Assembly: GCA_021817785.1 (NCBI GenBank)
Contig: JAKAFY010000006.1
Location: forward strand, 2,067-66,066
From: a bacterium
GTDB lineage: Bacteria; Patescibacteriota; Microgenomatia; UBA10105; UBA927
Direction of reading: 5' to 3'
Length of the DNA: 64,000 nt
Below, in pieces: positions 1-17,864 of this stretch (the first letter of the stretch is position 1; the number at the start of each line of letters is the position of its first letter). A model generated the notes under the pieces. The model did not search any database and was not told the origin of the DNA. It saw only the letters and a list, made by a program, of their open reading frames with translations. Position numbers and translations under genes: made by a program.

Positions 1-1351
1 GGTAGGCTGTCATTTTCCGATCCAAATCGCTCTGCAGCCGCTTCTTTTCCGGACCAAGCTTTACTTTTGTGGCAGCTTCTTCCAGATCAATCATGTCAAT
101 CTCTTTTTTATTTTCGCGTGCTGCCAGAATTGCCGATTCGTTTAACATGTTCTCCAAATCCGCGCCGGAAAACCCGACGGTCCGTTTGGCTACCCTGTCC
201 CAATCAACCGCCGATGCAAACGGTTTGCCGTGTGCGTGAATCCCGAGAATGGCTTTCCTGCCTTCCATATCCGGCAAATCGAGTACTACCCGTCTATCAA
301 ACCGTCCGGGCCGAAGCAATGCCGGATCCAGTAAATCTCCGCGATTTGTCGCGGCAACCAGAAGGACTGCTGTATTTGGTTCAAATCCATCCATCTCGAC
401 TAATATCTGGTTGAGCGTCTGTTCGCGCTCATCGTGACCACCCATGATGCCGACACTGCGCATCCTGCCGATGGCGTCAATTTCATCGATAAAGATGATG
501 GCCGGCGCGCTTTTTTTGGCCTGGGCAAACAAATCCCGTACCCGGGCGGCCCCTACTCCGACTAACATTTCCATAAATTCAGAACCAGCAATACTGAAAA
601 ATGCGGTATGTGCCTCTCCTGCCATCGCTTTGGCCAACAACGTCTTTCCGGTTCCGGAAGGCCCCACCAAAATAACGCCTTTGGGGGTTCGTGCACCGAG
701 CGCTTTATATTTTGCAGGATTTTTCAGAAAGTCGACGACCTCTTCCAGTTCTTTTTTGGCATCGTCTACCCCCGCCACATCTTTAAACGTTACCTTGGGC
801 AAATCCTTATTCCAGATACGTGCTTTGCTTTGTCCGAATGAAAAGATGTTGTCCTGTGCGCCTCTTGCTTGCCGAAACAAAAAGAAAAGGAACGCGATGG
901 TCAGGATAAACGGCAACACATTGGAGATAAGCCCGGCCCACATCGTTGCCGCACTCAAGTCTTTTACGTTGATGGAAACTGTCTTGGGGTCTACTCCGGA
1001 TTTTTGTAACACATCGACTAACGAGTCCTGCGACTCTTTGATAGCAGTGTATTTGGTGCCGTCTTTATCCGTTACCGTGAGCTTGGTGTCTTCTACATCA
1101 ATTGACTTTACCTTCCCTGCTTTCACGTCGTTTACTACAGTGGAAAGCGGCTTACTGGTCAGAAGCGATGCCTGGTTGCCGATGCTGCCGAGTATTGAAA
1201 ATATGATAAAGAAGACAAACAGACCGATGACAATATTTTTAAAATTCAACTGCATCTGCAACTGGAAGATTTTTTTGGATTTTTTCCCATTTTTGCCATG
1301 GGCGTGGCCGTTATCAGTATGTTTTCCCGGTGGTGTTTGTTTCTCTGCCAT
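1..1351 (-). CDS. ftsH: ATP-dependent zinc metalloprotease FtsH, N-terminal part; the C-terminus runs off the window start. The plus-strand ORFs listed here are antisense shadows.
   Basis: The minus-strand translation gives an N-terminal TM segment, a Walker A motif ([13 protein letters not shown]), Walker B (IIFIDEIDA), the second region of homology and then LGPEKK.. continuing off the edge. The ATG is at 1351. Confidence 0.9.
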
Positions 1352-1476
1352 ACGTTTATTAATGTCTATTCCCCGATAGGGAATTCTATTCTTATGATCG
1401 CCTGAGGGCGGCGGGTGGCCCGGCGTATTGAGCGTCAAGTATACCACGTTCACCGCTGCATATCACCTGAAGAATA

Positions 1477-3408
1477 TTAACGGATTTTCGCTCCAACTGG
1501 CATCCCGTCTCCGGAAATAAAGAGCGGCTTGGATGTATCCGCACTGTCTACGGCAAGGATCATCCCCTGGCTTTCCTCATCAAGCATTTTCCGGGGCGCC
1601 AGGTTGGTAATAAAGAAAAATTGCTTTCCGTTAAAGTCTTCGGGTGTATATCCAAACCCTCGCACGCCAGTGAATATAATCCTCGGTGTTTCTTCGGCTA
1701 TATCGACGACCAACCGGATGAGTTTTTCACTCCCCTCTTTATTTCGTGCTTCCAAAACTTTTCCCACCCGCACTTCCATTTTGGCAAATTCATCAATACT
1801 AATCGTCATTCTGGCCCGCTTCGCCTCCGCTCCAGCGAGGCGAGCTTGTCCAGAATCAGCCACCTTCGCATGCTTGTGTCCTCCTACTGAGTATTTCGTC
1901 GTCAATCCCACCGCTTCCCGTACGTCACCCATCGTTTTATCTGCCTTTGACATGGCGGCAGTGTATCCGCGCTGGAGTATGCCGCGTACCAATTCTGGAC
2001 TATTTTTCAGTTCTTCGTACGCTTTCCGTGCCGGCGCAAAGTACGTCATCAGGCTTTTAAATAAATAGTCCTTTACCTCAACATCCGACACCTTACCTGC
2101 TACATATGCCTTCTTGAGGGCGTCCACTTTTTTCGGCTCTCCGAAAAATCCAAGATACGTAAACACCATGTTCCCCTCTATATGTCCGGGGTCTGTCGCG
2201 TGCTTTCTCGTCGGATCGGTGTATGTACTGTTCACCTGTTTTCGCAAAACGTCTTCCGATTCAAATATGGAAATGATATTCCCAAGCGATTTACTCATCT
2301 TGCGTTTCCCGTCGGTGCCCAATACTGCCCCGACATCCTCCGGTATCATCGGCTCGGGCAACGTAAATATCTTCTTTTTGTATGTTCTGTTAAACCGCTC
2401 TGCTATGTCGCGCGTAATCTCCACATGCTGCTTCTGATCTTTCCCGACCGGCACAAAATCCGGGTGATACATGAGGATATCTGCCGCCATCAGAATCGGA
2501 TAGTTAAAGAGTCCGAGATTTATGTCGTCTTCCGCGACGTCTTTTTGCAACTTATCTTTGTACGCATGCGCGCGCTTGAGCAGCCCAAGTGGCGTGACAT
2601 TGTTGATGATCGACTGCAATTCCCCATGCAAACCGATATCCGATTGCCGATAAAACACTAATCGATCAAATTCTTCTTTCGACAAAAATCCTTTCAGGAG
2701 GGCGAGCTCATTGAGAATAAGATTCTCGATATTCGTTGCCAGATGCTTTTTGTCCTGAATCGTTGTCAGTCCGTGCATATCCGCGACAAACAGGAAACAT
2801 TCATTGGATTTTGCTATCTGAATAAACTGTTTGACTGCTCCCAAATAATTTCCGATATGCAGCGTCCCGTCCCCGCTTGGGGTGATACCCGATACGATTC
2901 GTTTATCTTTTACGTCTTTAGAGGCGATAACTGTATGAGTCGCGACAACATCACAAAAATCCACAAGATTAACTCCCGGCAATTTCTTTAAGTCGGCTGT
3001 CTTGTAACGAATGGTAACGAGTAGACTTCCAGATCCCGCATTGATATATTCTTTCTCAAATATTTTTTTATCGATGTATGTTGGTACATTCGGAATGTAG
3101 ACACTCGCTGCTCCACTCGGCACACCCGTTATATCAGCAAATTCTTCTTCGTTTGCCATCCGTAATGCAGTTACTCCAAGGTATTTCTTTACCTTCGTAC
3201 TATCTAGCTTTGTGTCTCCCCGTCGGATAATTGCCACAAAGCGATCATCAGCTTTCATGAGCAACGTCGCTGCCGCGTCACCCATACTAAATCCCAAATA
3301 TTTCTGTACCTCTGCGACAGAAATTAATTGCGGGTGTTCAAGCACCTGATGCTCAATTCCAAATTTTATTAACTGGTGAATATAATCCTGAACGGTTTTA
3401 TTATTCAT
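1477..3408 (-). CDS. trpS: Bacterial-type tryptophanyl-tRNA synthetase with an N-terminal YbaK/ProX-like deacylase domain and a C-terminal OB-fold tRNA-binding (Myf/EMAP-like) domain.
   Basis: Core motifs are TPSGDGTLHIGNYLGA (HIGN), YPILMAADIL, VPVGKDQKQHVEITRDIAERFN and KMSKSLGN. The first ~150 aa match the YbaK fold pattern (LLMK..RFVAIIRRGDTKLD..KKYLG..LRMA..EEF..TGVPSGAASV). The last ~100 aa (MEVRVGKVLEA...LIRLVVDI...NLAPRKM..ESQGMILA) match tRNA_bind. Confidence 0.85.
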   Translation of the reverse strand: MNNKTVQDYIHQLIKFGIEHQVLEHPQLISVAEVQKYLGFSMGDAAATLLMKADDRFVAIIRRGDTKLDSTKVKKYLGVTALRMANEEEFADITGVPSGAASVYIPNVPTYIDKKIFEKEYINAGSGSLLVTIRYKTADLKKLPGVNLVDFCDVVATHTVIASKDVKDKRIVSGITPSGDGTLHIGNYLGAVKQFIQIAKSNECFLFVADMHGLTTIQDKKHLATNIENLILNELALLKGFLSKEEFDRLVFYRQSDIGLHGELQSIINNVTPLGLLKRAHAYKDKLQKDVAEDDINLGLFNYPILMAADILMYHPDFVPVGKDQKQHVEITRDIAERFNRTYKKKIFTLPEPMIPEDVGAVLGTDGKRKMSKSLGNIISIFESEDVLRKQVNSTYTDPTRKHATDPGHIEGNMVFTYLGFFGEPKKVDALKKAYVAGKVSDVEVKDYLFKSLMTYFAPARKAYEELKNSPELVRGILQRGYTAAMSKADKTMGDVREAVGLTTKYSVGGHKHAKVADSGQARLAGAEAKRARMTISIDEFAKMEVRVGKVLEARNKEGSEKLIRLVVDIAEETPRIIFTGVRGFGYTPEDFNGKQFFFITNLAPRKMLDEESQGMILAVDSADTSKPLFISGDGMPVGAKIR

Positions 3409-3427
3409 ATGCCTCCTATAATTATAC

Positions 3428-4558
3428 TTAATCCAAATACGATTGTATCGGTCGAGTTAATAAATATACCTCCTTGTCTTGTGCTGCTATTTTTTTCTGC
3501 TGATGAGAGAAAACTACAGAAGTTATACATCGCTTCGCGATTTCCTTTAGTTCCTTCGTCAACAATTCTCCTTTTGTATATCGTGAATACAAATCCTGCA
3601 ACTCGCGGTCGCTTTCTAAGTATGCGCTCAAGAGCGCAAACACCGAACAGGCCTCCGGCACTGCACCGAATTTTCGATGTTCCTCGAGTGAACTGACAGC
3701 ACCCGTAAACGCAGAGGCGATCTTTTTTCCTATCACCTCCGAGGTGTCAGACAAATAAATAGCCGTTTCTGGTTTAGAACCGGACATTTTTTGTTCCGGA
3801 TCTTTAAGACTTGGGAGAAACCGCATGACAAGCTCCGACGGAGGTACCATCCCCATACGTTTTGCCACATCCCGGGCAAGCAAGATATACGGATGCTGAT
3901 CTATGCCAACCGGAATCAGGGTATGTTTCGGTCCGCCAAATTCCGGCAGCTGTGGCATAAGTATTTCTGCAAGCTGCACACACCCTCGATAAAATATCTG
4001 TCCCGGAGTAACAAGTGACTCTTTTCCAAACAGACTTTCCACTTCTGCCATTGAGACATATTTACTCAGCCGCATTGCAAACGGGTACAGCGTTGGGTAT
4101 TCCGTATCTACATAAATATGTGTGCGTTTTGGGTCAAATCCGAAGGCAATAATACTAGGCAATATTTCCTCATACGCTACGCGTTTACTCTCCCCCATCG
4201 TTTGCACTTTACCGTCGATATACGATTCGTCGTTCGTTAGAGGAATATATATTCGTCCCCCTAATTTCTGCAACGACAACAAGAGATCAAATAATATTTG
4301 ATGCCCAAGATGCAGTGTTGATGATGGATTCAATCCCGAAACCACTACGAATTCTTTCTTGTCAGCGATCAATTCCAAAATCGGTTCAAAGTCCAAGTGT
4401 GCGATCACTAAATCACGTTTGAGTTGCCGAAACATAAGATCATCCGGCAGATAAGCCTTAATCCTTCTCATATCAGTCAGACCGTTCTTCACACTTTGAT
4501 CCCGATAATATATTGCCAGCCTTTTTTTGATCGCTATTTTTTCCTGATATTCGTTCAT
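3428..4558 (-). CDS. Second tryptophanyl-tRNA synthetase, archaeal/eukaryotic type.
   Basis: GLNPSSTLHLGH, LTNDESYI, PVGIDQHPYILLARDVAKRMG, KMSGSKPETAIYLSDT and EEHRKFG...YTKGELLTKELKE align motif-for-motif with eukaryotic/archaeal TrpRS (GPSS..HVGH, AIDQDPYF, KMSAS). The start was chosen at MNEYQ, overlapping the stop of the upstream ORF. Confidence 0.8.
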   Translation of the reverse strand: MNEYQEKIAIKKRLAIYYRDQSVKNGLTDMRRIKAYLPDDLMFRQLKRDLVIAHLDFEPILELIADKKEFVVVSGLNPSSTLHLGHQILFDLLLSLQKLGGRIYIPLTNDESYIDGKVQTMGESKRVAYEEILPSIIAFGFDPKRTHIYVDTEYPTLYPFAMRLSKYVSMAEVESLFGKESLVTPGQIFYRGCVQLAEILMPQLPEFGGPKHTLIPVGIDQHPYILLARDVAKRMGMVPPSELVMRFLPSLKDPEQKMSGSKPETAIYLSDTSEVIGKKIASAFTGAVSSLEEHRKFGAVPEACSVFALLSAYLESDRELQDLYSRYTKGELLTKELKEIAKRCITSVVFSHQQKKIAAQDKEVYLLTRPIQSYLD

Positions 4559-5496
4559 ATGCCCTCCAATCCTAGTGGTGTATAGATACACTCACGAAGC
4601 TGACTCAGCGTGTCCTTGGAAATCTTCACACCAAGGAATTCCCGTGCCATTTCTGTAATGGCGTGTATATCTTTCACTGGATGGACGGTGTCCGGGTTTT
4701 CGGATTCAAACGATGTTTCAAGTAATTCCTTTGCCCGTATGAAAGATGTTTCTCCCAGGATGATGCGGAAGTCCTGCAGTTTATTACTCCCCGCCTTGTA
4801 CGGGGTCACCCCGTATTCCTCTATCTCTGGGTGCGTGAGAAAAAATGCGAAATTTTTTCCGAGCGGCTGAGTCGGCGTGAGATATATACTCTTTAATTTT
4901 CCGGGCATAATCTTTTCTCCGGCTTCGTCATAAAATCGCTCCCGTGGGGGTCCGATTTTCATATCAAATAATAATCCGGTCGCGACAGCATCAAGTGCAT
5001 ATCCAAACTTCTTTTTCCGTTCTTCTGCCAACTTATTTGGCAATATGGTTTTAGATAAGAGAGGTTCAATAACCTTTAAATCAACCTTTGCGATTTCGGC
5101 TCGGAGCTTTTTGTATTCATCGGTCATAAATTGTTCACTCATCAAACGAATCTTTATCGGTAATCGGTATACAGCAATGATCTTATTTAATAACTCGATC
5201 CGACTATTTAGTGACGACCTGATGTGCTCCCTCTTTTGAACTGTTGAGTCGTTCATAAACGATGCCGTATCGGCAACCACGACGGTAGCTACTGCTGATA
5301 GTTTTTTCTGAAGATTACTTAACGTAAAGTAATACTTCAGACAATCAATCGGCATACCAAACTCATCGACGGTTTCTCCGTAAAAAAGCCGTATCGGTTT
5401 ATGATTCAATTTAAAATCTCCAAGCGCACCATAGACTCCCCCGCTCTCACGTAGGAAGCGCGCAAATTCGTTCGTTATGACTTTTTGCCTTTTCAT
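4555..5496 (-). CDS. Hypothetical protein, possibly a catalytically degenerate class I (TyrRS/TrpRS-like) aminoacyl-tRNA synthetase paralog.
   Basis: A 313-aa ORF translationally coupled to the euk-type trpS. Its layout resembles the archaeal TyrRS Rossmann core (..VATVVVADTASFMND.. against ..IIILLADLHAYLN..). It has PIDC where HIGH would be and KIMPGK where KMSKS would be. The call is by eye only. Confidence 0.35.
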   Translation of the reverse strand: MKRQKVITNEFARFLRESGGVYGALGDFKLNHKPIRLFYGETVDEFGMPIDCLKYYFTLSNLQKKLSAVATVVVADTASFMNDSTVQKREHIRSSLNSRIELLNKIIAVYRLPIKIRLMSEQFMTDEYKKLRAEIAKVDLKVIEPLLSKTILPNKLAEERKKKFGYALDAVATGLLFDMKIGPPRERFYDEAGEKIMPGKLKSIYLTPTQPLGKNFAFFLTHPEIEEYGVTPYKAGSNKLQDFRIILGETSFIRAKELLETSFESENPDTVHPVKDIHAITEMAREFLGVKISKDTLSQLRECIYTPLGLEGI

Positions 5497-5547
5497 ACCT
5501 CCTTCTTTCTATGAACTATTTACTGGCCATTCTACGAACTAACTCTG

Positions 5548-5618
5548 TGGGATCACTAGGATTTGAACCTAGACTAAGTGTTCTGGAAACACTTGTGCTA
5601 CCGTTACACCATGAACCC
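5548..5618 (-). tRNA. tRNA-Trp (anticodon CCA).
   Basis: The reverse complement folds as a cloverleaf with acceptor GGGTTCA/TGATCCC (one U-U mismatch), anticodon loop TTCCAGA and T-arm CTAGG-TTCAAAT-CCTAG. CCA is not encoded. Confidence 0.7.
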
Positions 5619-6124
5619 AAGGTATTAACTTTTTCCTAAAAATCTCTCCAATATTGACCGCTCTCTTCCACATGGCATCATGTTTCTCTGGCCCTTCGTC
5701 AACCTGCTTGCGACCGGACATGTCTCTTGTATTCGACACAGTTGTACCAATGCTTTCTGAGCTACGACTATCCTTGGCTTCCCAAGCCTGGCATGTTCAG
5801 GTTGGGCGGCTAAAGACCTGATCCGTACATCAGCACACACTCCCACATCCTGCGATATCCCGGCAGCTAGCTTGCGACACTTATCTGTTTCCATTCTCGT
5901 TTGCGTCATATAAATATTGAATACACAACCATCAAAAAAGCCCTTGCACATCCCCAAGAGCCTCTTGTTCTGATGTTTTAAAACATCAAAACAAAACTCT
6001 TTAGAAATCTGCAAGGGCCTTTATTAGCGTTGTTATTCGCGCGTATTCACCTTTCTGTGAACCGTGAACCAATAACTATGAACTAATGAAGGGGTACCAC
6101 CCTTTCTTTGTTGTTCCGCCCACT

Positions 6125-6144
6125 AAAAAACTCCCTTTCGGGAG
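6125..6144 (-). terminator. Candidate intrinsic terminator, active on the minus strand.
   Basis: The minus strand reads CTCCC-GAAA-GGGAG followed by TTTTTT. Confidence 0.4.
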
Positions 6145-6402
6145 TCTGTCACTACTGAGGCGGAAAAACCTCATTATTGACATACTCCGACCTCGTCCAC
6201 CGTAGCTTATGCGAAGGTGGATTCGCGACATATGTTGACAGTCTTTTTACGGTTTCACCTCCGGATAAGACATTCTTTCGATAGCCCTATCAGCGTTTAG
6301 CTCTCGCTAATTGAGGAAATCCCAATCAATCCCCTCACCGCTTGTATTCACTTGTGAGGATATAGTATAGCACACCTGTCAAAATCACAACATATTTTGC
6401 CT

Positions 6403-6431
6403 TTGCTGAGCGTCATGCATTGCGCTATAAT
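6403..6431 (+). promoter_or_regulatory. Sigma70-like promoter for the downstream tRNA.
   Basis: TTGCTG (6403-6408), a 17-nt spacer, then TATAAT (6426-6431), about 20 nt upstream of the tRNA 5' end. Confidence 0.4.
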
Positions 6432-6451
6432 ACTCATGCACATTCATATAC

Positions 6452-6521
6452 CGCGGGGTAGTGTAAAGTCGCACAGGAGGCTCATAATCTCCTAGGCCGG
6501 GTGCGATTCCCGGCCCCGCAA
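6452..6521 (+). tRNA. tRNA-Met (anticodon CAT), with an initiator-like C1:A72 mismatch.
   Basis: Acceptor CGCGGGG/CCCCGCA, anticodon arm GGAGG-CTCATAA-TCTCC and T-arm CCGGG-TGCGATT-CCCGG. Confidence 0.7.
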
Positions 6522-6533
6522 CAGATAGTAAAT

Positions 6534-6559
6534 AGCGCCTATACAGGCGCTATTTTTTT
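6534..6559 (+). terminator. Intrinsic terminator after the tRNA-Met gene.
   Basis: AGCGCC-tataca-GGCGCT followed by ATTTTTTT. Confidence 0.55.
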
Positions 6560-7410
6560 ATCGATTCCAGCCATGATATGAGATACGTTCCGGTGCGCGC
6601 GCCAGGCCGCAGCCGAAGCAGGGTAAACCGATAATCCGGCGATTGTATGATCCCCGGCCGAGTCGTGGTAGCGGTCCGAAATCCTGCGGCAGATACGGCA
6701 ATTACCGCAGCCGAATCATAGGATCCATACGGATACGCAAAATCAATCACCGGTTTTCCGATCAGATGTTCTAATTGCGTTTTGCTTCCGTAAATTTCCG
6801 CGTGCAAAAGTTGCGGTGATATTCCTTTGAGACTCACATGGTGCACGGTGTGGGCTGCCACTTCCACTAGCCCGCTGGATGCGATATCCATCACTTCCTG
6901 TTTTGTCATATAGTTTGGTTTATCTAAAAATCCTGGTACCACGTAGGACGTTGCTTTCACATGATATTTTTGCAATATCGGGTAGGCATCCGTATAAAAA
7001 TCCCGATATCCGTCATCAAACGTAAAAACGATCGGCTTATCGGGCAATGTCCCTTTTCCGTCCAGATATGCCGCCAGATCACTCATAAATATCGGGGTAT
7101 ACCCATGAGACAGAAAGGTGGCAATTTGTGCATCCATCGTTTTCGGCAAAATATCCAGCCCTTCACGGATGGTGTCTTTCGGGTCTTTCACGATTTCCAC
7201 ATAGTGATACATCAGTATTGGCACGCGCACAGGCTGTACAAGCACGGGGCGCGCGGTGGGTGTGGGAATTGGGCGTTCTGTCGGGCGTATGAAAAGATAC
7301 GGAAGATGCAAAATGGTTCTGCCGCTTTTCGGCATCGTTACGATGCTCCACGTTCCTATCCCAAAACAGATACAAAGTATCACAATGCCCGCTGTTAATT
7401 TGGTATTCAT
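6550..7410 (-). CDS. Polysaccharide deacetylase (NodB homology domain, CE4), membrane-anchored.
   Basis: TFDDGYRD, HTVHH and an N-terminal TM segment. Confidence 0.85.
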   Translation of the reverse strand: MNTKLTAGIVILCICFGIGTWSIVTMPKSGRTILHLPYLFIRPTERPIPTPTARPVLVQPVRVPILMYHYVEIVKDPKDTIREGLDILPKTMDAQIATFLSHGYTPIFMSDLAAYLDGKGTLPDKPIVFTFDDGYRDFYTDAYPILQKYHVKATSYVVPGFLDKPNYMTKQEVMDIASSGLVEVAAHTVHHVSLKGISPQLLHAEIYGSKTQLEHLIGKPVIDFAYPYGSYDSAAVIAVSAAGFRTATTTRPGIIQSPDYRFTLLRLRPGARTGTYLISWLESIKK

Positions 7411-7515
7411 AGAGCAGATTATACCGTATCCTCACGCTTCCTGCGTTGCCTTTTCCTGGGTATTTTCGTAAAATGAAGCCTACAGCCCACCTTCGCTAAA
7501 GCTTCGGCGGGCAAT

Positions 7516-7587
7516 GCCAGCGTAGCTCAGTGGTAGAGCAGTGTCTTCATAAGGCATTTGTCGCAAGTCCGATCCTTGCCGCTGGCA
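7516..7587 (+). tRNA. tRNA with anticodon CAT (elongator Met or Ile2/lysidine type).
   Basis: GCCAGCG-TA-GCTCAGTGGTAGAGC, anticodon arm GTGTC-TTCATAA-GGCAT (two G-U pairs), T-arm GCAAG-TCCGATC-CTTGC and acceptor 3' strand CGCTGGC-A. Confidence 0.7.
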
Positions 7588-7637
7588 CCCGATCCCCTAC
7601 CGGTATTCGCATACCAAAAGCGTGTCCACATGGACGT

Positions 7638-9218
7638 TTAAAAATATCCGCTTCGTATGAGTTGTTGTTGCGTATTCCCATACGGAATCTGCATAAATGG
7701 TGACGGAAGCAACAGCTCGGGAACGGCCGCGCGTATCAGGACATCGCGATATTGTTTTACAATCTGCCTGTGGGAATTCGCTATATTATGTAATTCTTCG
7801 GGATCGCTTCGCAAATCATATAGTTCAGGCTTTTTTTGCGGATCCCGATACACAATCAACGCATAGCGCCGATTCTGGATAACAAACGTATCCTCATAGT
7901 TCATGGACACGGCATACGATTTTGCGCGATACGAAACGCCGGACAACAGCGGGATCAATGACATTCCCTGTATGTATTTGGGCGCAGCCCCGACAACCAT
8001 TGCGGCAATCGTCGGATAGAGATCGAGATTTTCGACTACTGTATCTACATGCCCTCCCCTACTGCCTGGATACGTTATGACGAACGGCACATGATATACC
8101 TCGTTATAAGGAGCATCCATATGGGAAAAGAGTCCGTGTTCACCAAATGCCTCTCCGTGCGCCGCCGTCACGATGATCACGGTATGATTGGCCACGTCAG
8201 GTTTCAATAAATAATCCACAAATCCTGAAAGGCGCGTATCCAATATGTGCAGCTTTGTCTCATAAAGCATCCGAAGGTATGCGACCTCCTGCGGATTATC
8301 TGCATGGATAAACTGCATGTATGGATCATATACGGTTTCCCACGAAAGCAACCGTTGCGTATAGTCATGATTATCTATAAGCTCCTGCAAATAATCCGCG
8401 ATTTTTTTACCACGTATTGAAGGGTCTGCCTGAAAAATTTCTGGGTGCTCCGCTATGGCAGCCGGTACGAATATTTGCCCGACGTGAGCAGATAAGTATG
8501 CCTCGCGGACACGCATAAATTCATCCGTATAAATGGGAAAGCCATCGGGCTTGGGCAAATTCCGGATTGGCCGTTCGGGCGGAACCAACAGGTACGGTAA
8601 ATGCAATTCCTCTGTATATGCGTGGAAAAACACCGGTTTATTTATGGCTACCGCCTGCTTATATTCGTCTATCCATATGTTTTCTGCCGGCGAACTCAAA
8701 TCTGTGTGGACATAGCCACGTAACCCTCCGTTACGTTTGGTTAATAATGCGTCATTATCGTCTCCGATATAATACGTGTCATACCCCTGTTGACCAAGAA
8801 ATTGAGCGAGGGTGACTGTCGTAGGAGAGAGGGCTCCTTCCTGCTGTTTCCAGACTTGATTGATGTTGGGGTATAATGACGTATAGGTAGACAAGGCGCT
8901 CGGCAACGTCCAAAACGATTGGCTATACGCTTGTGAAAACTGCACCCCCGCAGAGGCGAGCCTGCACAAATTTGGAGCAATCTCTTTTCCCTTCCCGTTA
9001 CAATCCAGCTCATCGGCGCGGAGGACGTCCAAATCCAGGATAACCACGTTGCAGTGCCTGCAACCGACGCGTGCGGCAGCGACATGCTCCACGACCCTGC
9101 GGCACATGATGGCTATGGAAATGAGGGCTGCACAAACGCAAATCAGCACCCCCGCTTTTTGTACCCCTGTCCATACCGCTGTTATGTTGTATTTCTTCGG
9201 GTATATAGGATTGTTCAT
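7638..9218 (-). CDS. Sulfatase-like hydrolase/transferase (alkaline phosphatase superfamily), membrane-anchored. It lacks the C/S-x-P-x-R formylglycine motif.
   Basis: VVILDLDVLRADELDCNG...APNLCRLA and a C-terminal HGEAFGEHG. TLPS sits where CTPSR would be. Confidence 0.7.
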   Translation of the reverse strand: MNNPIYPKKYNITAVWTGVQKAGVLICVCAALISIAIMCRRVVEHVAAARVGCRHCNVVILDLDVLRADELDCNGKGKEIAPNLCRLASAGVQFSQAYSQSFWTLPSALSTYTSLYPNINQVWKQQEGALSPTTVTLAQFLGQQGYDTYYIGDDNDALLTKRNGGLRGYVHTDLSSPAENIWIDEYKQAVAINKPVFFHAYTEELHLPYLLVPPERPIRNLPKPDGFPIYTDEFMRVREAYLSAHVGQIFVPAAIAEHPEIFQADPSIRGKKIADYLQELIDNHDYTQRLLSWETVYDPYMQFIHADNPQEVAYLRMLYETKLHILDTRLSGFVDYLLKPDVANHTVIIVTAAHGEAFGEHGLFSHMDAPYNEVYHVPFVITYPGSRGGHVDTVVENLDLYPTIAAMVVGAAPKYIQGMSLIPLLSGVSYRAKSYAVSMNYEDTFVIQNRRYALIVYRDPQKKPELYDLRSDPEELHNIANSHRQIVKQYRDVLIRAAVPELLLPSPFMQIPYGNTQQQLIRSGYF

Positions 9219-9619: not shown

Positions 9620-9736
9620 GGTACTTGCGTATAGGTCTGATATATGATATTATAGGCTTTAAGAAACATAGGTCGCAACCATACTCAATCTCCTGCTGAA
9701 TTGAATATACCGGTCCGCGCACCGAATTTATCTATC

Positions 9737-10597
9737 ATGGCTCTCGAACTCAAACTTGCGCACAAACAATTTGTCGAATATCTCGAGTCCCGCAGACGCG
9801 CTCGCGCTACTATCGTAGCATACAGCAAAGATATAGAGCAGCTCATCCAATTCCTGGGAAATACAGGGAAAAAGGATATTGGCGCCGTCACCCGGGAGGA
9901 ACTTGAGGCCTTCTTAAAAAAACTCGCCTCCGACAGCTATACGCCGAAATCCATTTCTCGGAAAATCAACTCCATGAAGACTTTTTACCGCTTTCTCAAG
10001 GCATCGGGCGTAATCACTACGGACCCCGCTGCGGACATAGAGCACCCCAAATACGACATCAAACCTCCACGCATTTTATCCAAACTGGAATATCGGGCGC
10101 TCCGGGATGCATGCCGCGGAGATATCCGAACCCATGCCATCGTGGAGCTTTTCCTTCAGACCGGGTTAAGAATCGGCGAACTTGCGAATCTTACGACAGG
10201 TGATGTGCGTGAGACAGAGCTTCACATCTCCGCCCAGGAGGGCCATGAGGAACGCATGGTGCCTTTAAACCGGGCGGCCAAAGAAGCGCTTGCCAGCTGG
10301 ACGACAGTGCGCGGCAATGGCGTTAAGTCCAATGCATTGTTTATCACCAAAACCGGCCGGTCACTACTTATCCGAAACATCCGTACGGCAATCGACCGGT
10401 ACTTTAAAATTGCCGGCATTGAAGACGCCAAAGTCAACGATTTGCGCCACACATTTATCGCCCATCATCTCATGGCAGGAACACCTATTACTACGATCAG
10501 TAAATTAGTAGGACACAAACGATTGTCCACCACAGAAAAATATCTGGAATTTATCAAAGACAAACAGGTTGAACACGTCAAACTTGAAGAGCTGTAA
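9737..10597 (+). CDS. Tyrosine site-specific recombinase XerC/XerD family.
   Basis: An N-terminal core-binding domain and a catalytic domain with R..HxxR..Y (LRHTFIAHHL...TEKY). The start was chosen at MALELK. Confidence 0.8.
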   Translation: MALELKLAHKQFVEYLESRRRARATIVAYSKDIEQLIQFLGNTGKKDIGAVTREELEAFLKKLASDSYTPKSISRKINSMKTFYRFLKASGVITTDPAADIEHPKYDIKPPRILSKLEYRALRDACRGDIRTHAIVELFLQTGLRIGELANLTTGDVRETELHISAQEGHEERMVPLNRAAKEALASWTTVRGNGVKSNALFITKTGRSLLIRNIRTAIDRYFKIAGIEDAKVNDLRHTFIAHHLMAGTPITTISKLVGHKRLSTTEKYLEFIKDKQVEHVKLEEL

Positions 10598-10785: not shown

Positions 10786-10942
10786 GTTAAATAGCTTTAT
10801 GCCAGGTAGGAGAATTTCGACACGCTTTCGTTCATTGCGCGACGAATAGACTTCCTGGATGTTAATATAATGTTGTTATAGAAATAACGCTGAAATTTTC
10901 CAAAGCGCAAAAAACGCAATGGTCGAAATTTCACTACCTGGT

Positions 10943-13237
10943 ATGGATAAAAATTACGATCCGAAATTGACCGAGGAAGCTATCTACCGAATGTGGGAAA
11001 CCGGCGGATATTTTACCCCAACAATAGATCCCCAAAAAAAGCCGTTTACTATTTTATTGCCATTGCCCAATGCCAATGACCCGATGCACATGGGGCACGC
11101 CATGTTTACCGTGCAGGATATTTTAATCCGATATCACCGCATGATGGGAGACCCCACGCTTTGGCTTCCGGGCGGTGACCATGCAGGTATCGAAACGCAA
11201 TATGTTTTTGAAAAGAAATTAGCAAAAGAAGGCAAAAGCCGGTTTCAGTTCGATCGCGATACGCTCTACAACATGATTGCCGACTACGTCGAGCAAAATA
11301 AAAATATCAACCGCGATCAAATGAAGCGCCTGGGCTTTTCCATGGATTGGACACGATACCGCTACTCGCTGGACCCAAACATCGTTGCAACTGTTTTAGA
11401 CACATTCAAAACTATGTACAACGATGGCCTTGCCTATCGCGATGCCCGACTCGTCAATTATTGTACGAAAGACGGCACGGGATTTTCAGATCTGGAAGTA
11501 AAGTATGACGAACGCATAGACCCGTTATACTACATGAAATACGGACCGTTTACGATCGCTACGGTTCGCCCCGAAACCAAATTCCGCGATACAGCATTGG
11601 CCGTCAACCCGAAAGACAAACGATACAAAAAATACATCGGGCAAACGCTCGAAATCATGGGACTGTTGGGACCTATCCAGATGACCGTGATTCCGGATCA
11701 GGAAGTGGATCCCAAATTCGGTACGGGGATAATGAAAGTCACTCCGGCGCATGATCCGCATGATTTCGAACTTGGCAAAAAATTTAATTTACCCGTTACT
11801 CCGATTATCGACCAACGCGGAAAAATGGATTTTTCATGGTTCCTCTCACAAAACAATATAGAACCGAAATACAAAGAACGAGCAGAAAAATATCACGGAA
11901 AAAAGGTGGCAGAAGCACGCGCACTCATGGTAGAAGATCTCAAAGCGGATGGGCTATTGGTAAAAGTTGATGAACAATACACGCATCGGGTCGGAATGTG
12001 TTATCGCTGCGGCTCAGTCCTTGAACCCCTCCCTATCCCCCAGTGGTATATCAAAACAAAACCGTTAGCCAAAAAAGCTATCGAGGCAGTCAAAAAAGGG
12101 AAAACAAAAATATTCCCCAAAAAACGGTTTGAAAAAATGTATTTCGACTGGATGAACAATATTCTGGATTGGAATATCAGCCGCCAGATTGTGTGGGGAC
12201 CGCGAATTCCTATCTGGTACTGTCTGGATTGTAATCCTGATATTGCCCTTTCATTTTTAAATGCAGAACATGTGAAAATGTTTGGTACATATAAAGATTT
12301 TGCTTCTACGCATTCTTTTGACGAAATAAAACATGGCATCCAAACGCTTTCCGCACCTTTGAAAGCGACATACGCATTAACCGATGGAGCGTGTACGACA
12401 TGTGGCGGCACCCACATCCTACAGGAAACCGATACGTTTGATACCTGGTTTCTTTCCAGCCAATGGCCAATTACGACACTCGGGTTTCCGGATAGCAAAG
12501 ACTTTAACTATTTCTACCCAACATCAGTCCTCGACACTATGTGGGACATTCTTTTTTTCTGGGTGGCCCGGATGATGATGATGGGACTCTACAGGACCGG
12601 AAAAGTACCGTTTGAGGTCGTGCATCTCCATAGCCGCGTCGTGGACGCACATGGCAAAAAAATGGCCAAAAGCAAAGGCAACGTTATAAACCCCATTGAT
12701 ATGGTCGGCAAATACGGCGCGGATGCCCTCCGGTTTGCACTTATGTTCGGTGCCGCTCCGGGCAGCGATATTGCAATATCAGAAGACAAAATCAGAGGTA
12801 TGAGAAACTTTGCAAATAAACTATGGAATATCGGCCGGTTTATTCACATGAATATTGACGCCGCAAAGGCTGAAATTCCGTTCTATGACGATACACGCCT
12901 CCAGACAGTGATTGACGCCAACGATAAACAGATCATTTCCGAACTAAATACGCTGGCTGTCTCTGTGACGAAGAATATAAACCACTACCGATTTTCCGAC
13001 GCCGCCCAGTCGCTCTACGAATTTACCTGGCATCAGTTCGCTGATGTGTATCTCGAGAAAAATAAAGACCGGTTCAAAGCCGGGGACGCGCAGGCACTTT
13101 CTGTCCTGCGGCATGTATACATTATACTTTTAAAGCTCATCCATCCGTTTATGCCGTTTGTCACGGAAAGCATATGGGGCACATTTCCGCGGAAACACGC
13201 GGATCCGCTCATTATCTCTCATTGGCCTACAGTTTGA
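10943..13237 (+). CDS. valS: Valyl-tRNA synthetase (short form without the C-terminal coiled coil).
   Basis: MDKNYDP..EEAIYRMWE matches the ValRS N-terminus. Motifs PNANDPMHMGHA (HIGH-type), KMAKSKGN and the WYIKTKPLAKKA region are present. The ORF track begins at 10919, but MDK fits ValRS alignments better. Confidence 0.85.
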   Translation: MDKNYDPKLTEEAIYRMWETGGYFTPTIDPQKKPFTILLPLPNANDPMHMGHAMFTVQDILIRYHRMMGDPTLWLPGGDHAGIETQYVFEKKLAKEGKSRFQFDRDTLYNMIADYVEQNKNINRDQMKRLGFSMDWTRYRYSLDPNIVATVLDTFKTMYNDGLAYRDARLVNYCTKDGTGFSDLEVKYDERIDPLYYMKYGPFTIATVRPETKFRDTALAVNPKDKRYKKYIGQTLEIMGLLGPIQMTVIPDQEVDPKFGTGIMKVTPAHDPHDFELGKKFNLPVTPIIDQRGKMDFSWFLSQNNIEPKYKERAEKYHGKKVAEARALMVEDLKADGLLVKVDEQYTHRVGMCYRCGSVLEPLPIPQWYIKTKPLAKKAIEAVKKGKTKIFPKKRFEKMYFDWMNNILDWNISRQIVWGPRIPIWYCLDCNPDIALSFLNAEHVKMFGTYKDFASTHSFDEIKHGIQTLSAPLKATYALTDGACTTCGGTHILQETDTFDTWFLSSQWPITTLGFPDSKDFNYFYPTSVLDTMWDILFFWVARMMMMGLYRTGKVPFEVVHLHSRVVDAHGKKMAKSKGNVINPIDMVGKYGADALRFALMFGAAPGSDIAISEDKIRGMRNFANKLWNIGRFIHMNIDAAKAEIPFYDDTRLQTVIDANDKQIISELNTLAVSVTKNINHYRFSDAAQSLYEFTWHQFADVYLEKNKDRFKAGDAQALSVLRHVYIILLKLIHPFMPFVTESIWGTFPRKHADPLIISHWPTV

Positions 13238-15620: not shown

Positions 15621-16184
15621 TTATCCCCGTTCGAGATATGCGCCGGTTTCCGGATCTATGCCGATCGTATCTCCCTCTTTTATAAAGAGCGGAACCGTGA
15701 TCGTCGCCCCCGTTTCTACAACGACTGTTTTGGTCGCACCGCTTACGGTATTCCCCTTGGCTCCTTCGGTCGCTTCCGTAACTTTCAGCCAAACCTTTTT
15801 AGGAAACCGAAGACCTACTGCATTTTCTTCAAACATCAACACCTGATAGGAATCGTTTGGTTTGAGATAGTTGATAAAATCACCCAACATTGTTGCCGAT
15901 ATCGTACACTGCTCAAAAGAAAAGTTATCCATGAACACATATCCTTCCCCTTCTTTATAGAGATACTGCATCTCCCTGGTTTCAATGGGTAATTCTTCTG
16001 CGGACTCGCCGGATTTAAACGTGAATTCCTGTACTTTCCCGCTTTTTAAACTTTTGAGCTTTGTGCGCACAAACGCCGATCCCTTCCCGGGATTCACAAA
16101 CTGCATATCGGTGATAAGGTGCGGCTCATCTTTAAATTCGATGAACATGCCTTTTTTAAATTGTGCGGTCGTTATGGTAGACAT
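15621..16184 (-). CDS. efp: Elongation factor P.
   Basis: VNPGKGSAFVRTKLKSL and the overall length and pattern. Confidence 0.9.
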   Translation of the reverse strand: MSTITTAQFKKGMFIEFKDEPHLITDMQFVNPGKGSAFVRTKLKSLKSGKVQEFTFKSGESAEELPIETREMQYLYKEGEGYVFMDNFSFEQCTISATMLGDFINYLKPNDSYQVLMFEENAVGLRFPKKVWLKVTEATEGAKGNTVSGATKTVVVETGATITVPLFIKEGDTIGIDPETGAYLERG

Positions 16185-16215
16185 AGAATGTGTTTTTCCT
16201 TTCGGAATGTGCCTA

Positions 16216-16800
16216 TTATCTCATATTTCGCTGTGCCTTCGCAATTGCCGTCCCGGTGATAAGGTAGATAATACTTGCATCAAGCGCAACGACATACAAA
16301 GGATATGCCACTTCAGAAGCGGACCACTGCCCGGCAGCCGCCAACGTACAGAGTGCGGCCATGACATCTAAAAAATAAAATGTCCAGACCTCCGTATGTG
16401 GCAGACGGTATGTTTTGAAAAGCATCGGCAGTTGTCCGACAAAATCCGCACCGATAAAAAATATGAGCCCGAGCAGCGGATCATTCGTCACGTTCCAAAA
16501 TAGAACACCTGCGACTGAGGTCAGAAGGCACAGGATATCAGACGCCGACCACCCTCCCATGCCCCGCCAGAGACTGAGCGCAAAAATAATACACGAGCCT
16601 CCGGCAAACACAACCGAAAGCCATACGGCCGACGTACTCCCCTGCGCGAAAAGCGACGCCATAGCAAGAACAGTAATAAGTGCCGTACAAAATCGCGTTG
16701 TGCGATGCGGCCTGGCGTCCCCGCGAACAATTGCCACAACATAGACGATGTACGAAATCAGTGCCAATATGCTGCTCATGGAAATAAGTACGGATCTCAT
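16216..16800 (-). CDS. Hypothetical polytopic membrane protein.
   Basis: About six hydrophobic segments. The call rests on composition only. Confidence 0.45.
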   Translation of the reverse strand: MRSVLISMSSILALISYIVYVVAIVRGDARPHRTTRFCTALITVLAMASLFAQGSTSAVWLSVVFAGGSCIIFALSLWRGMGGWSASDILCLLTSVAGVLFWNVTNDPLLGLIFFIGADFVGQLPMLFKTYRLPHTEVWTFYFLDVMAALCTLAAAGQWSASEVAYPLYVVALDASIIYLITGTAIAKAQRNMR

Positions 16801-17864
16801 GGGACATGAAACAATTCTTCAGACGGAAACAACATGGTGTCCTGCACACGCTTTGCATCGGCAAATAGCATGACAAGTCGATCAACGCCTATTGCTATCC
16901 CGCTGCTATCCGGCAATCCTGCTTTCAGCGCATCGATAAAATCATGATCATAATCATATATGGTTTTTCCTAACCGTTTGATCTCTTTAAGCTCGCTTTC
17001 AAAACGCGACTGCTGTTCTTTCCAGTCAGTCAGTTCACTATAACAATCTCCAAGTTCCAGCCCTTCAATATAAAACTCGAATCGCTCGGCAAACCGGGGG
17101 TCTGATTTCTTCTTTCGGGCCAGCGCTCCCATGACCCCGGGAAATTCATAGAGAATCGTCGGCTTTCCGCGTCCTAAATGCGATTCGATTTCATTAAGAA
17201 ATATCTGGTTATACAATTCCTCCCATGTTGTTTCCGCTTCTATCACATACCCTTTTTTTTGCGCGATACTCTTCGCATGGTCTTCCAGTAAAAACTCGGC
17301 AAAGTCCACGTGCGCCCACCGCAAAAATGCGTCGGCAACGGTTAGCCGCTCCCAGGGTCCCGCAAGATTCACGCGCGTTCCCTGATAGGATAATTCTTCC
17401 GGCCGCTGTGTTTCCATACCGGGGGTAGTCCGTTTTATGTAGGTATTGATAAAAACGAGCAACTCTTCACAATCAGACATGATATCCCGATAGTCGGCGC
17501 CGACTCTGTACCACTCTAATATCGTAAACTCCGGGTTATGCAGATTGCTTTGCGTCTCCATGTTGCGAAAGCTTTTCGTTACCGCGAAACAATTTCCTAT
17601 TCCCGCAACCATAAGTTTTTTGAGTGGTACTTCGGGAGATGTAGACAGGTATGCCTTCGTAGGATTGCGGTTTCGGTCAAAAAGCGTCGTTTCAAAAATA
17701 TCAAGATAACTTTCCGCAGGCGGGTGTGCGATCAGAAGCGGTGTTTCCACTTCGTGAAACTTCTGTTGGCCAAAAAAGATACGGATTGCGGCAATGACTT
17801 TTTCGCGGATAAAATATCGCTCCCACAGTTCCGGATGCGCTTTCAGCGTTTTCCATGTATTCAT
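16797..17864 (-). CDS. epmA: EF-P lysyl ligase EpmA (GenX/PoxA, a class II LysRS catalytic-domain paralog).
   Basis: SFRNMETQSNLHNPEFTILEWY (motif 2), GIAIGVDRLVML (motif 3), strong similarity across the N-terminal half, and adjacency to efp. Confidence 0.8.
   Translation of the reverse strand: MNTWKTLKAHPELWERYFIREKVIAAIRIFFGQQKFHEVETPLLIAHPPAESYLDIFETTLFDRNRNPTKAYLSTSPEVPLKKLMVAGIGNCFAVTKSFRNMETQSNLHNPEFTILEWYRVGADYRDIMSDCEELLVFINTYIKRTTPGMETQRPEELSYQGTRVNLAGPWERLTVADAFLRWAHVDFAEFLLEDHAKSIAQKKGYVIEAETTWEELYNQIFLNEIESHLGRGKPTILYEFPGVMGALARKKKSDPRFAERFEFYIEGLELGDCYSELTDWKEQQSRFESELKEIKRLGKTIYDYDHDFIDALKAGLPDSSGIAIGVDRLVMLFADAKRVQDTMLFPSEELFHVP

Follow-up and report, generated by a model that had tools for sequence, protein, structure and literature searches.

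The aminoacyl-tRNA synthetases for tryptophan, tyrosine and aspartate (TrpRS, TyrRS and AspRS) are textbook enzymes without editing domains, and the INS/YbaK superfamily is usually described as a set of single-domain factors that act in trans and depend on one lysine, apart from the INS domain of prolyl-tRNA synthetase (ProRS). In the same way, a 2024 review presents the members of the INS superfamily other than INS itself as single-domain proteins (PMC11295145). Meanwhile, Mukai, Reynolds, Crnkovic and Soll (2017, Life 7:8; PMC5370408) described in Microgenomates a bacteria-type TrpRS located after a tRNATrp(A73)-ORF1-TrpRS-A operon, and the legend of their Fig. 4 mentions TrpRS 'fused with small proteins'. 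The gene analysed here belongs to a locus of this kind. It codes for a TrpRS carrying an additional domain at each end and lies in a 64-kb stretch of contig JAKAFY010000006.1 (assembly GCA_021817785.1, positions 2,067 to 66,066 of the forward strand), called the window below, from a bacterium of the Microgenomatia, within the candidate phyla radiation (CPR). Its N-terminal domain has kept the YbaK/INS fold, but the two catalytic features that define the superfamily, the lysine and the proline of the GXXXP loop, are absent from it. The gene and its parts are the following (positions in the window, strand in brackets):

1477..3408 (-): fused TrpRS, a complete open reading frame (ORF; 643 amino acids plus stop) made of an INS-like domain, a TrpRS core and a tRNA-binding OB (oligonucleotide/oligosaccharide-binding) domain; ORF call, Pfam and NCBIfam.
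2944..3408 (-): domain of YbaK/INS-superfamily fold, residues 1-155, a member of a clade without the lysine (Lys-less); Pfam, AlphaFold and Foldseek.
3268..3270 (-): codon of Ala47, at the position of the superfamily's conserved Lys (K279 of the S. aureus ProRS INS domain); HMMER and MAFFT.
3223..3225 (-): codon of Arg62, a candidate for a relocated active-site charge; homologue alignment and predicted hairpin.
3100..3114 (-): loop G99-A-A-S-V103, at the place of GXXXP; alignments.
2911..2943 (-): flexible linker, residues 156-166; predicted local distance difference test (pLDDT) below 50 for residues 156-163 of the full-length model.
1894..2910 (-): bacterial-type TrpRS catalytic core and anticodon-binding helices, residues 167-505; TIGR00233 and matches to TrpRS structures in the PDB.
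2848-2859 (-): HIGN motif, residues 184-187; motif search.
2434-2445 (-): GKDQ motif, residues 322-325; motif search.
2287-2301 (-): KMSKS motif, residues 370-374; motif search.
1804..1893 (-): low-complexity flexible linker, residues 506-535; pLDDT below 50 in the full-length model.
1480..1803 (-): tRNA-binding OB domain of the Trbp111/MetRS-C type, residues 536-643; Pfam and PDB match.

The ORF is uninterrupted and begins with an ATG, with a GGAGG Shine-Dalgarno sequence 5 nucleotides (nt) upstream as seen by inspection of the sequence, and it starts where the homologues have their conserved M1. A 100% identical protein (P0001) is found on 5 contigs in NCBI, ENA and Logan assemblies. NCBI and JGI label the fusion as a plain tryptophan--tRNA ligase. 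Three Pfam domains are present, each well over its gathering cut-off. The three assignments of the original prediction, namely a YbaK/ProX fold, a bacterial TrpRS core with HIGN and KMSKS and a Myf/EMAP-type OB domain, are borne out by Pfam, by AlphaFold and Foldseek and by PDB matches, and its view of a single gene is confirmed by the uninterrupted ORF and by the recurrence of the N-terminal fusion in 79 homologue clusters and 11 GTDB species. The full-length AlphaFold monomer, with a predicted template modelling score (pTM) of 0.50 and pLDDT below 50 at residues 156-163 and 506-535, points to three folded modules with flexible linkers between them, the N-terminal domain being joined to the core by a linker of about 11 residues, directly ahead of the first Rossmann-fold strand and the HIGN motif.

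Regarding the fold of the N-terminal domain, Pfam places tRNA_edit (PF04073) at residues 25-143 (E=1e-21, 77.7 bits against a cut-off of 25.5), and an AlphaFold (AF2) model of residues 1-165, for which 36 homologues were used, reaches a pLDDT of 94.1. The best Foldseek matches in the PDB are 1wdv (APE2540; template modelling score, TM, 0.82), 2cx5 (T. thermophilus ProX/ProXp-x; TM 0.80) and 1dbu (H. influenzae YbaK; TM 0.78), and all 37 PDB fold matches with E<=0.001 are YbaK, ProX, INS or YbaK-like-domain structures; SadB (9qzk) and Maqu_0641 (3mem) are among the matches of the domain. No structure of a D-aminoacyl-tRNA deacylase (DTD) appears among its Foldseek matches and the fold is YbaK-like, so that membership of DTD1, DTD2 or DTD3 is excluded. 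YbaK proper, the Cys-tRNAPro deacylase, was also rejected as the identity of the domain, with 24.7 bits for TIGR00011 against a cut-off of 153.25; the match to the sequence of 1dbu in a PDB sequence search is weak (E=0.21).

The conserved Lys of the S. aureus ProRS INS domain (K279), of APE2540, of TTHA1699 and of lpg1207 aligns in each case with Ala47 by HMMER, and a joint MAFFT alignment agrees. Conservation was counted over the 79 carriers of the N-terminal domain found among the best 120 homologue clusters, where position 47 is occupied by A (47), S (18), T (7) or V (7) and by K or R in 0/79; in free-standing relatives it is S or P. In the loop that corresponds to GXXXP, 78/79 keep the Gly and only 8/79 the final Pro, and the loop of the window has no Pro. 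The original prediction had asked whether the Lys and GxxxP-type residues are conserved, and here the answer is negative. Its deacylase reading is supported as far as the fold is concerned, but a canonical YbaK/ProX deacylase is unsupported because both the Lys and the GXXXP Pro are missing, while a modified active site is possible.

A candidate for such a modification is position 62, which is basic in all 79 fused homologues (R in 51 and K in 28) and V, I or L in the four reference structures aligned by MAFFT. In the AlphaFold model, the predicted strands 45-53 and 56-63 form a hairpin with a two-residue turn, so that positions 47 and 62 should be cross-strand neighbours with their side chains on the same face. 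P26, D65 and D113 are invariant among the fused forms, and T48, R63, K72, K74, G99, G127 and D139 are conserved in at least 90% of them, in proteins that are only 20-70% identical. As judged from the alignment, the domain is under strong constraint, and the polar residues around the canonical pocket are very strongly conserved.

The distribution of the fusion was followed in one genome per GTDB species with the full-length alignment as query. The N-terminal fusion is found in 11 GTDB species, labelled Gottesmanbacteria, Microgenomates or Patescibacteria, with a few bins labelled 'Gammaproteobacteria', and the TrpRS of Gracilibacteria, Peregrinibacteria, Saccharibacteria and non-CPR phyla match the core only (residues ~169-502). 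The fusion is the usual form of TrpRS in many metagenome-assembled genomes of Gottesmanbacteria, which are ultrasmall CPR bacteria, and is a lineage trait. Five Gottesmanbacteria-type TrpRS loci of GTDB representatives (L018, L024, L025, L026 and L029; L and P numbers denote loci and proteins) come from binchicken co-assemblies titled 'uncultured Gammaproteobacteria bacterium', whose taxonomy is probably mislabelled.

Close relatives present the modules in several combinations: N-terminal domain, core and OB domain in ~620-650 amino acids; N-terminal domain and core in 504 amino acids, followed directly by a gene of its own for the OB domain (L008, L016 and L023); core and OB domain in ~460 amino acids; and, in proteins of ~660-800 amino acids, a tandem of paralogous INS-like domains, the first (type 1) resembling that of the window and the second being of type 2. 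The separate OB-domain genes downstream of TrpRS are located at L008:7580-7915, L016:3980-4300, L023:8355-8654 and L029:8018-8281, so that nature offers this domain in both a split and a fused form. The tandem forms (for example L009:6001-8343, and P0002-P0005, P0009, P0029 and P0058) are Lys-less in both domains, type 1 having the motif GAASV and type 2 the motifs GVSTL and GYVSP, the latter type retaining the GXXXP Pro. By their sequences, the paired type 1 and type 2 domains suggest two specificities on one synthetase.

For a better understanding of its relatives, the domain was searched for beyond TrpRS. Word-indexed searches gave 12 and 31 matches and missed the long fusions; an exhaustive search was used, in which a profile made from the domain of the window and 17 free-standing relatives was scored against 1.84 billion representatives, with 4749 matches at E<=1e-3 and 29 at E<=1e-30. 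When the best 150 representatives were aligned to the profile, the top 34 were all Lys-less (motifs GVSTL, xLPTL and xAPT[LF]), and Lys-bearing sequences appeared from rank 35. Column 62 is basic in 32/63 Lys-less sequences and in 0/81 Lys-bearing ones (Fisher p=9e-15, without phylogenetic correction), an association that reads as a compensatory pattern. Judging from these sequences, the Lys-less state marks a diverse clade and not a one-off decay. Its members are mostly free-standing proteins of 150-175 amino acids, the closest relatives of the window domain having ~155 (P0127-P0146), and two of the free-standing genes adjoin AlaX-type editing genes. As a side observation, in L004:7286-9586 and L005:1363-3663 the Lys-less INS-like gene P0127 is directly downstream of an AlaX-like (tRNA_SAD) gene, with a second tRNA_edit gene (104 amino acids) ~800 bp beyond it, an arrangement that resembles a small set of trans-editing factors encoded side by side; the P0127 contig also codes for ankyrin-repeat and WD40-like beta-propeller proteins.

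Of the longer proteins among the best 150 representatives, 23 were examined, of which 3 have no second domain, 1 is a RuvX fusion and the rest are fused to TrpRS, TyrRS or AspRS. In the TrpRS fusions the domain is mostly N-terminal, but P0158 has a Lys-less domain at the C-terminus and is an independent fusion. A bacterial TyrRS (P0261, L094:6001-7770), found in two assemblies, has a Lys-less domain at the N-terminus, and archaeal-type TyrRS (P0225, and P0300 at L097:5001-6596) have a Lys-bearing INS-fold domain at the N- or C-terminus, the contig of P0300, 100 kb long, being archaeal and also carrying genes of the mevalonate pathway. In AspRS (P0227 at L096:40-2274, P0254 and three fragments) the INS-fold domain is Lys-bearing and C-terminal. 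On comparison of these sequences, fusion to synthetases has arisen repeatedly and independently.

The favoured proposal is that a Gottesmanbacteria-like genome (Microgenomatia, CPR) has here its housekeeping TrpRS, of bacterial type, to which two tRNA-handling modules have been added on flexible linkers. While the synthetase holds the tRNATrp, the N-terminal domain would bind the aminoacylated CCA end of this tRNA and would hydrolyse a wrong product, as post-transfer proofreading in cis, with R/K62 on the neighbouring strand possibly standing in for the absent Lys. Meanwhile, the OB domain may add a general, non-specific affinity for tRNA, as on MetRS, by analogy with its homologues, from which dimerisation and binding of the tRNA elbow would also be expected. 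The idea that a re-wired active site of the INS type proofreads tRNATrp in cis after transfer is given a probability of roughly 40%. It is favoured because the domain has stand-alone relatives, strong conservation and an invariant basic residue beside the vacated Lys position, and because of its attachment just before the HIGN strand, which holds it near the synthetic site, and its repeated, independent fusion to synthetases.

Regarding the substrate, the most plausible candidate is D-Trp-tRNATrp, and otherwise a Trp analogue, since TrpRS, TyrRS and AspRS, the fusion partners of INS-fold domains, are the enzymes that make the classical substrates of D-aminoacyl-tRNA deacylases; the domain would then be catalytically active, in cis, with D-Trp as the amino acid to be removed. 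DTD1 acts on D-Tyr-, D-Asp- and D-Trp-tRNA (PMC1807948, PMC11295145), and the statement of the original prediction that TrpRS is not known to need editing needs qualifying, as D-Trp-tRNATrp is a known deacylase substrate (PMC1807948). In a broader and more doubtful extension, the Lys-less INS-fold domain would be a hitherto unrecognised, fourth structural type of D-aminoacyl-tRNA deacylase for chiral proofreading, which, itself or through related INS-fold domains, was repeatedly recruited in cis by TrpRS, TyrRS and AspRS, also exists free-standing and may replace DTD in genome-reduced CPR bacteria. A tblastn search with an approximate E. coli dtd query gave no match in 1.07 Mb, which covers only small pieces of each genome, too little for the result to be informative.

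Several observations weigh against cis proofreading. In all INS-superfamily enzymes characterised so far, activity relies on the conserved Lys and on the GXXXP loop (PMC11286415), and both are altered here. Position 62 is not basic in about half of the Lys-less clade, and relocation of the charge would therefore not be, from the sequences, a general rescue. The full-length AlphaFold monomer gives the inter-domain geometry, including the docking of the N-terminal domain on the core, without confidence (pTM 0.50). In addition, the close Gottesmanbacteria relatives L020, L022 and L032 have a TrpRS without the domain and no copy of it within 6 kb, so that they either do without the module or have it supplied from another place. 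The link with D-amino acids was drawn after the fact from no more than three partner families, and several of these fusions are rare, with 1-2 cluster members. Moreover, the AlaX-like domain of Plasmodium TrpRS is a precedent for a degenerate, non-editing appendage on this synthetase (PMC3680381). A like role may apply here, and it is possible, with a substantial minority chance, that a defunct editing fold has been kept as a module binding or chaperoning the acceptor or CCA end of tRNA, which together with the OB domain would raise the affinity for tRNATrp or protect Trp-tRNATrp in small, slow-growing cells. The hallmark Lys is indeed missing in 79/79 and the GXXXP Pro is lost here, both needed by all characterised members of the family (PMC11286415); the protein has also acquired an OB domain for general tRNA binding, as if affinity for tRNA had been selected for, and modules are freely gained, lost, split and duplicated among close relatives. 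However, the clade also includes autonomous proteins of ~155 amino acids that consist of this one domain and are hard to explain by a mere helper role, the polar residues of the pocket are very strongly conserved with position 62 invariantly basic, and the tandem domains point to two specificities rather than to additional binding.

The known roles of the superfamily centre on the errors of ProRS (PMC11286415, PMC11295145), and the domain could instead edit in trans the products of another synthetase, such as Ala- or Cys-tRNAPro from an INS-less ProRS, riding on TrpRS and using its OB domain. On a CPR-like contig (L012/L013), a free-standing Lys-less homologue directly follows ArgRS, and 3.3 kb downstream of the homologue comes an archaeal-type ProRS of 489 amino acids without INS (ProRS-C_1), and the tandem type 1 and type 2 domains would parallel the pair of ProXp-ala and YbaK. 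This explanation is unlikely, as that association is a single locus with unrelated genes in between, no ProRS fusion occurs among the 150 nearest representatives, whose partners are TrpRS, TyrRS, AspRS and one RuvX, and independent fusions at both ends of TrpRS speak for a functional link with the tRNA of TrpRS itself. It is quite improbable that the domain senses tryptophan or a precursor and tunes TrpRS to the tryptophan supply, since linkage to trp genes, as in L008, where the fused gene directly follows a complete trpEGDCFBA operon, and in L007, where it follows a PALP (TrpB-like) gene, is expected of any TrpRS gene, and the same clade is fused to TyrRS and free-standing in unrelated contexts. 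What speaks for sensing, besides that linkage, is the absence of Trp residues from the fused TrpRS, TrpRS-A and ORF1 (sequence count; PMC5370408) and the presence of YbaK-like folds in signalling proteins, such as SadB (9qzk) and Maqu_0641 (3mem). Lastly, the OB domain is a separate gene in L008, L016, L023 and L029, so that fusion and fission do occur in the family; an artefact by frameshift, mis-assembly or read-through of separate genes in gene calling was nevertheless rejected and has a negligible probability, given the uninterrupted ORF with its start at the conserved M1, the identical protein on 5 contigs and the recurrence of the fusion across independent assemblies, homologue clusters and species.

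The core itself is matched by tRNA-synt_1b at residues 168-457 (E=8.5e-56) and, with the whole protein as query, by trpS (TIGR00233; 269.2 bits against a cut-off of 176.75), and it aligns end to end with bacterial TrpRS structures in the PDB (3m5w, E=3e-64; 2el7, E=3e-63). HIGN, GKDQ and KMSKS are all invariant among 30 homologues, and the aspartate of the GxDQ motif reads the indole NH in TrpRS. By score and motifs, the fused protein is assigned to the bacterial-type TrpRS of class Ic. At the C-terminal end, tRNA_bind (PF01588) is placed at residues 546-639 (E=1.8e-17, 63.7 bits against a cut-off of 27), and the last 108 amino acids match Trbp111 (1pyb, E=1.7e-18), 38li (E=9.5e-19) and MetRS C-domains (E~1e-18) in the PDB.

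The fused gene is preceded by an archaeal-type TrpRS and followed by a protease gene, and these neighbours are the following:

5548..5618 (-): tRNA-Trp with CCA anticodon and the archaeal/eukaryal-type discriminator A73 (A at 5548), head of the operon; tRNA search and Rfam.
4555..5496 (-): ORF1, 313 amino acids, always paired with TrpRS-A; PMC5370408.
3428..4558 (-): TrpRS-A, archaeal-type TrpRS of 376 amino acids; best match to archaeal-type TrpRS models, and PMC5370408.
1..1351 (-): downstream gene of an FtsH-like AAA protease, cut by the edge of the window; domain match.

The archaeal-type tRNATrp(A73)/TrpRS-A pair shares its operon with the bacterial-type TrpRS and lies directly upstream of it, with 19 nt from the stop of TrpRS-A to the start of the fused gene, and in each tested feature the window matches the tRNATrp(A73)-ORF1-TrpRS-A locus type (PMC5370408). 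The stop of ORF1 overlaps the ATG of TrpRS-A as ATGA (4555-4558), as in translational coupling; ORF1 has no family match in Pfam or NCBIfam and shares 40-44% identity with the ORFs that precede TrpRS-A in L009, L015 and L026. No tRNATrp with G73 is present in the 64-kb window, the only tRNATrp there being that with A73. At E<=0.01, an Rfam scan of positions 1-9000 found three tRNAs and nothing else, neither a T-box nor another kind of leader before the operon; ahead of the tRNA-Trp, the ~480 nt at 5625-6100 (-) have no convincing ORF and may be a leader or promoter region. Of the loci with the N-terminal domain, only L009, L015 and L026 have ORF1 and TrpRS-A in the 6 kb upstream; L006/L014, L007, L008, L017, L019, L021, L023 and L033 lack them there. 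The fusion is independent of the TrpRS-A operon, and a role of the domain in policing cross-charging between G73 and A73 tRNATrp was rejected as a general account, because most fusion loci have no TrpRS-A within 6 kb. FtsH follows the fused gene here and in L007, L008 and L009, and this preserved synteny indicates that the fused TrpRS is a resident housekeeping gene at a conserved position.

Other genes of the window were noted in passing. Two tRNA-Met (CAT) genes, at 6452-6522 (+) and 7515-7590 (+), flank a polysaccharide deacetylase gene, and a gene of the XerC/phage-integrase family lies near them at 9701-10597 (+); a similar integrase and Polysacc_deac_1 neighbourhood is found upstream of the fused TrpRS in L007. 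The valyl-tRNA synthetase (ValRS) at 10919-13237 (+) is short, with 772 amino acids, and is matched by valS models only to about position 700 of 860, apparently without the usual C-terminal coiled-coil domain. At 15621-17864 (-), EpmA (GenX; lysine aminoacylase of elongation factor P, EF-P; TIGR00462, 326 bits), an ORF of 194 amino acids and EF-P form an apparent operon; the 194-amino-acid ORF has no family match and could be a partner in EF-P modification.

In the searchable literature, no description of a YbaK/INS-TrpRS fusion or of the status of DTD in CPR bacteria was found beyond Mukai et al., nor any functional study of the fused TrpRS. The original prediction called the architecture novel, which does not hold for the fusion as such, present in databases, alluded to in the legend mentioned above (PMC5370408) and preceded by the Plasmodium TrpRS (PMC3680381), while the novelty lies in the appended domain, in what it is, in its properties and in its function. 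Among the points that are new to that literature are its identity, its membership of a large Lys-less clade of the INS superfamily, the compensatory basic residue, the tandem variants and the pattern of INS-fold fusions on TrpRS, TyrRS and AspRS. A whole bacterial lineage thus carries an INS-fold module on its housekeeping TrpRS, a sizeable clade to which this module belongs gave up the lysine of the superfamily, and TyrRS and AspRS captured INS-fold domains independently. If active, the domain would represent a new catalytic solution inside a well-studied editing fold and the first cis-editing class Ic synthetase, possibly enforcing homochirality in organisms with minimal genomes; if inactive, it would be a clean natural case of an editing fold re-used for tRNA handling.

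Compared with the locus of Mukai et al. (PMC5370408), the window has the same order of tRNA-Trp(A73), ORF1, TrpRS-A and bacteria-type TrpRS, and all three proteins are free of Trp. Nevertheless, the fused parts were not identified there, the word YbaK being absent from that paper, and the fusion is here shown to be independent of the TrpRS-A operon. The domain has the same fold as the ProX-type proteins TTHA1699 (2cx5, T. thermophilus) and APE2540 (1wdv, A. pernix) and as ProRS INS (TM 0.80-0.82, root-mean-square deviation 1.7-2.2 A), which are also its best PDB sequence matches (E=3e-7 to 2e-6) and have the D65, G99, D113 and GG(S)G motifs in common with it. It differs from them by an identity of only ~21%, by Ala in place of Lys, by the loss of the GXXXP Pro and by a basic position 62 that is hydrophobic in theirs; furthermore, the ProX-type proteins are free-standing and INS is inserted in ProRS, whereas the domain of the window is fused to TrpRS. 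Regarding the C-terminal part, the NLAPRKM and GM(I/V)L motifs of the MetRS C-domain, Trbp111 and EMAP II-type OB folds are present in its 108 amino acids, but the partner is TrpRS and not MetRS, and in some relatives the domain is a separate adjoining gene downstream.

In the cytosolic TrpRS of Plasmodium falciparum (Khan et al. 2013, PMC3680381), a domain of an editing family is also linked to the N-terminus, with monomeric appendages beside a dimeric core and canonical editing activity in doubt; that domain, however, has the AlaX/tRNA_SAD fold and not the YbaK/INS fold, and it is borne by a eukaryotic-type TrpRS without a C-terminal OB domain, while that of the window is bacterial-type. DTD is a possible functional analogue only, as its substrates come from TrpRS, TyrRS and AspRS, the fusion partners of INS-fold domains; its fold is unrelated to that of the window domain, and the resemblance is hypothetical. 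In archaeal ThrRS, a deacylase fold was likewise recruited as an N-terminal editing domain in cis. The ProXp-ala-ProRS fusions of Plasmodium and Trypanosoma (PMC11286415) also have an N-terminal domain of the INS superfamily, acting there on the mischarged product of its own synthetase, with ProRS as the partner, with Lys and GXXXP kept and with Ala-tRNAPro as the known substrate.

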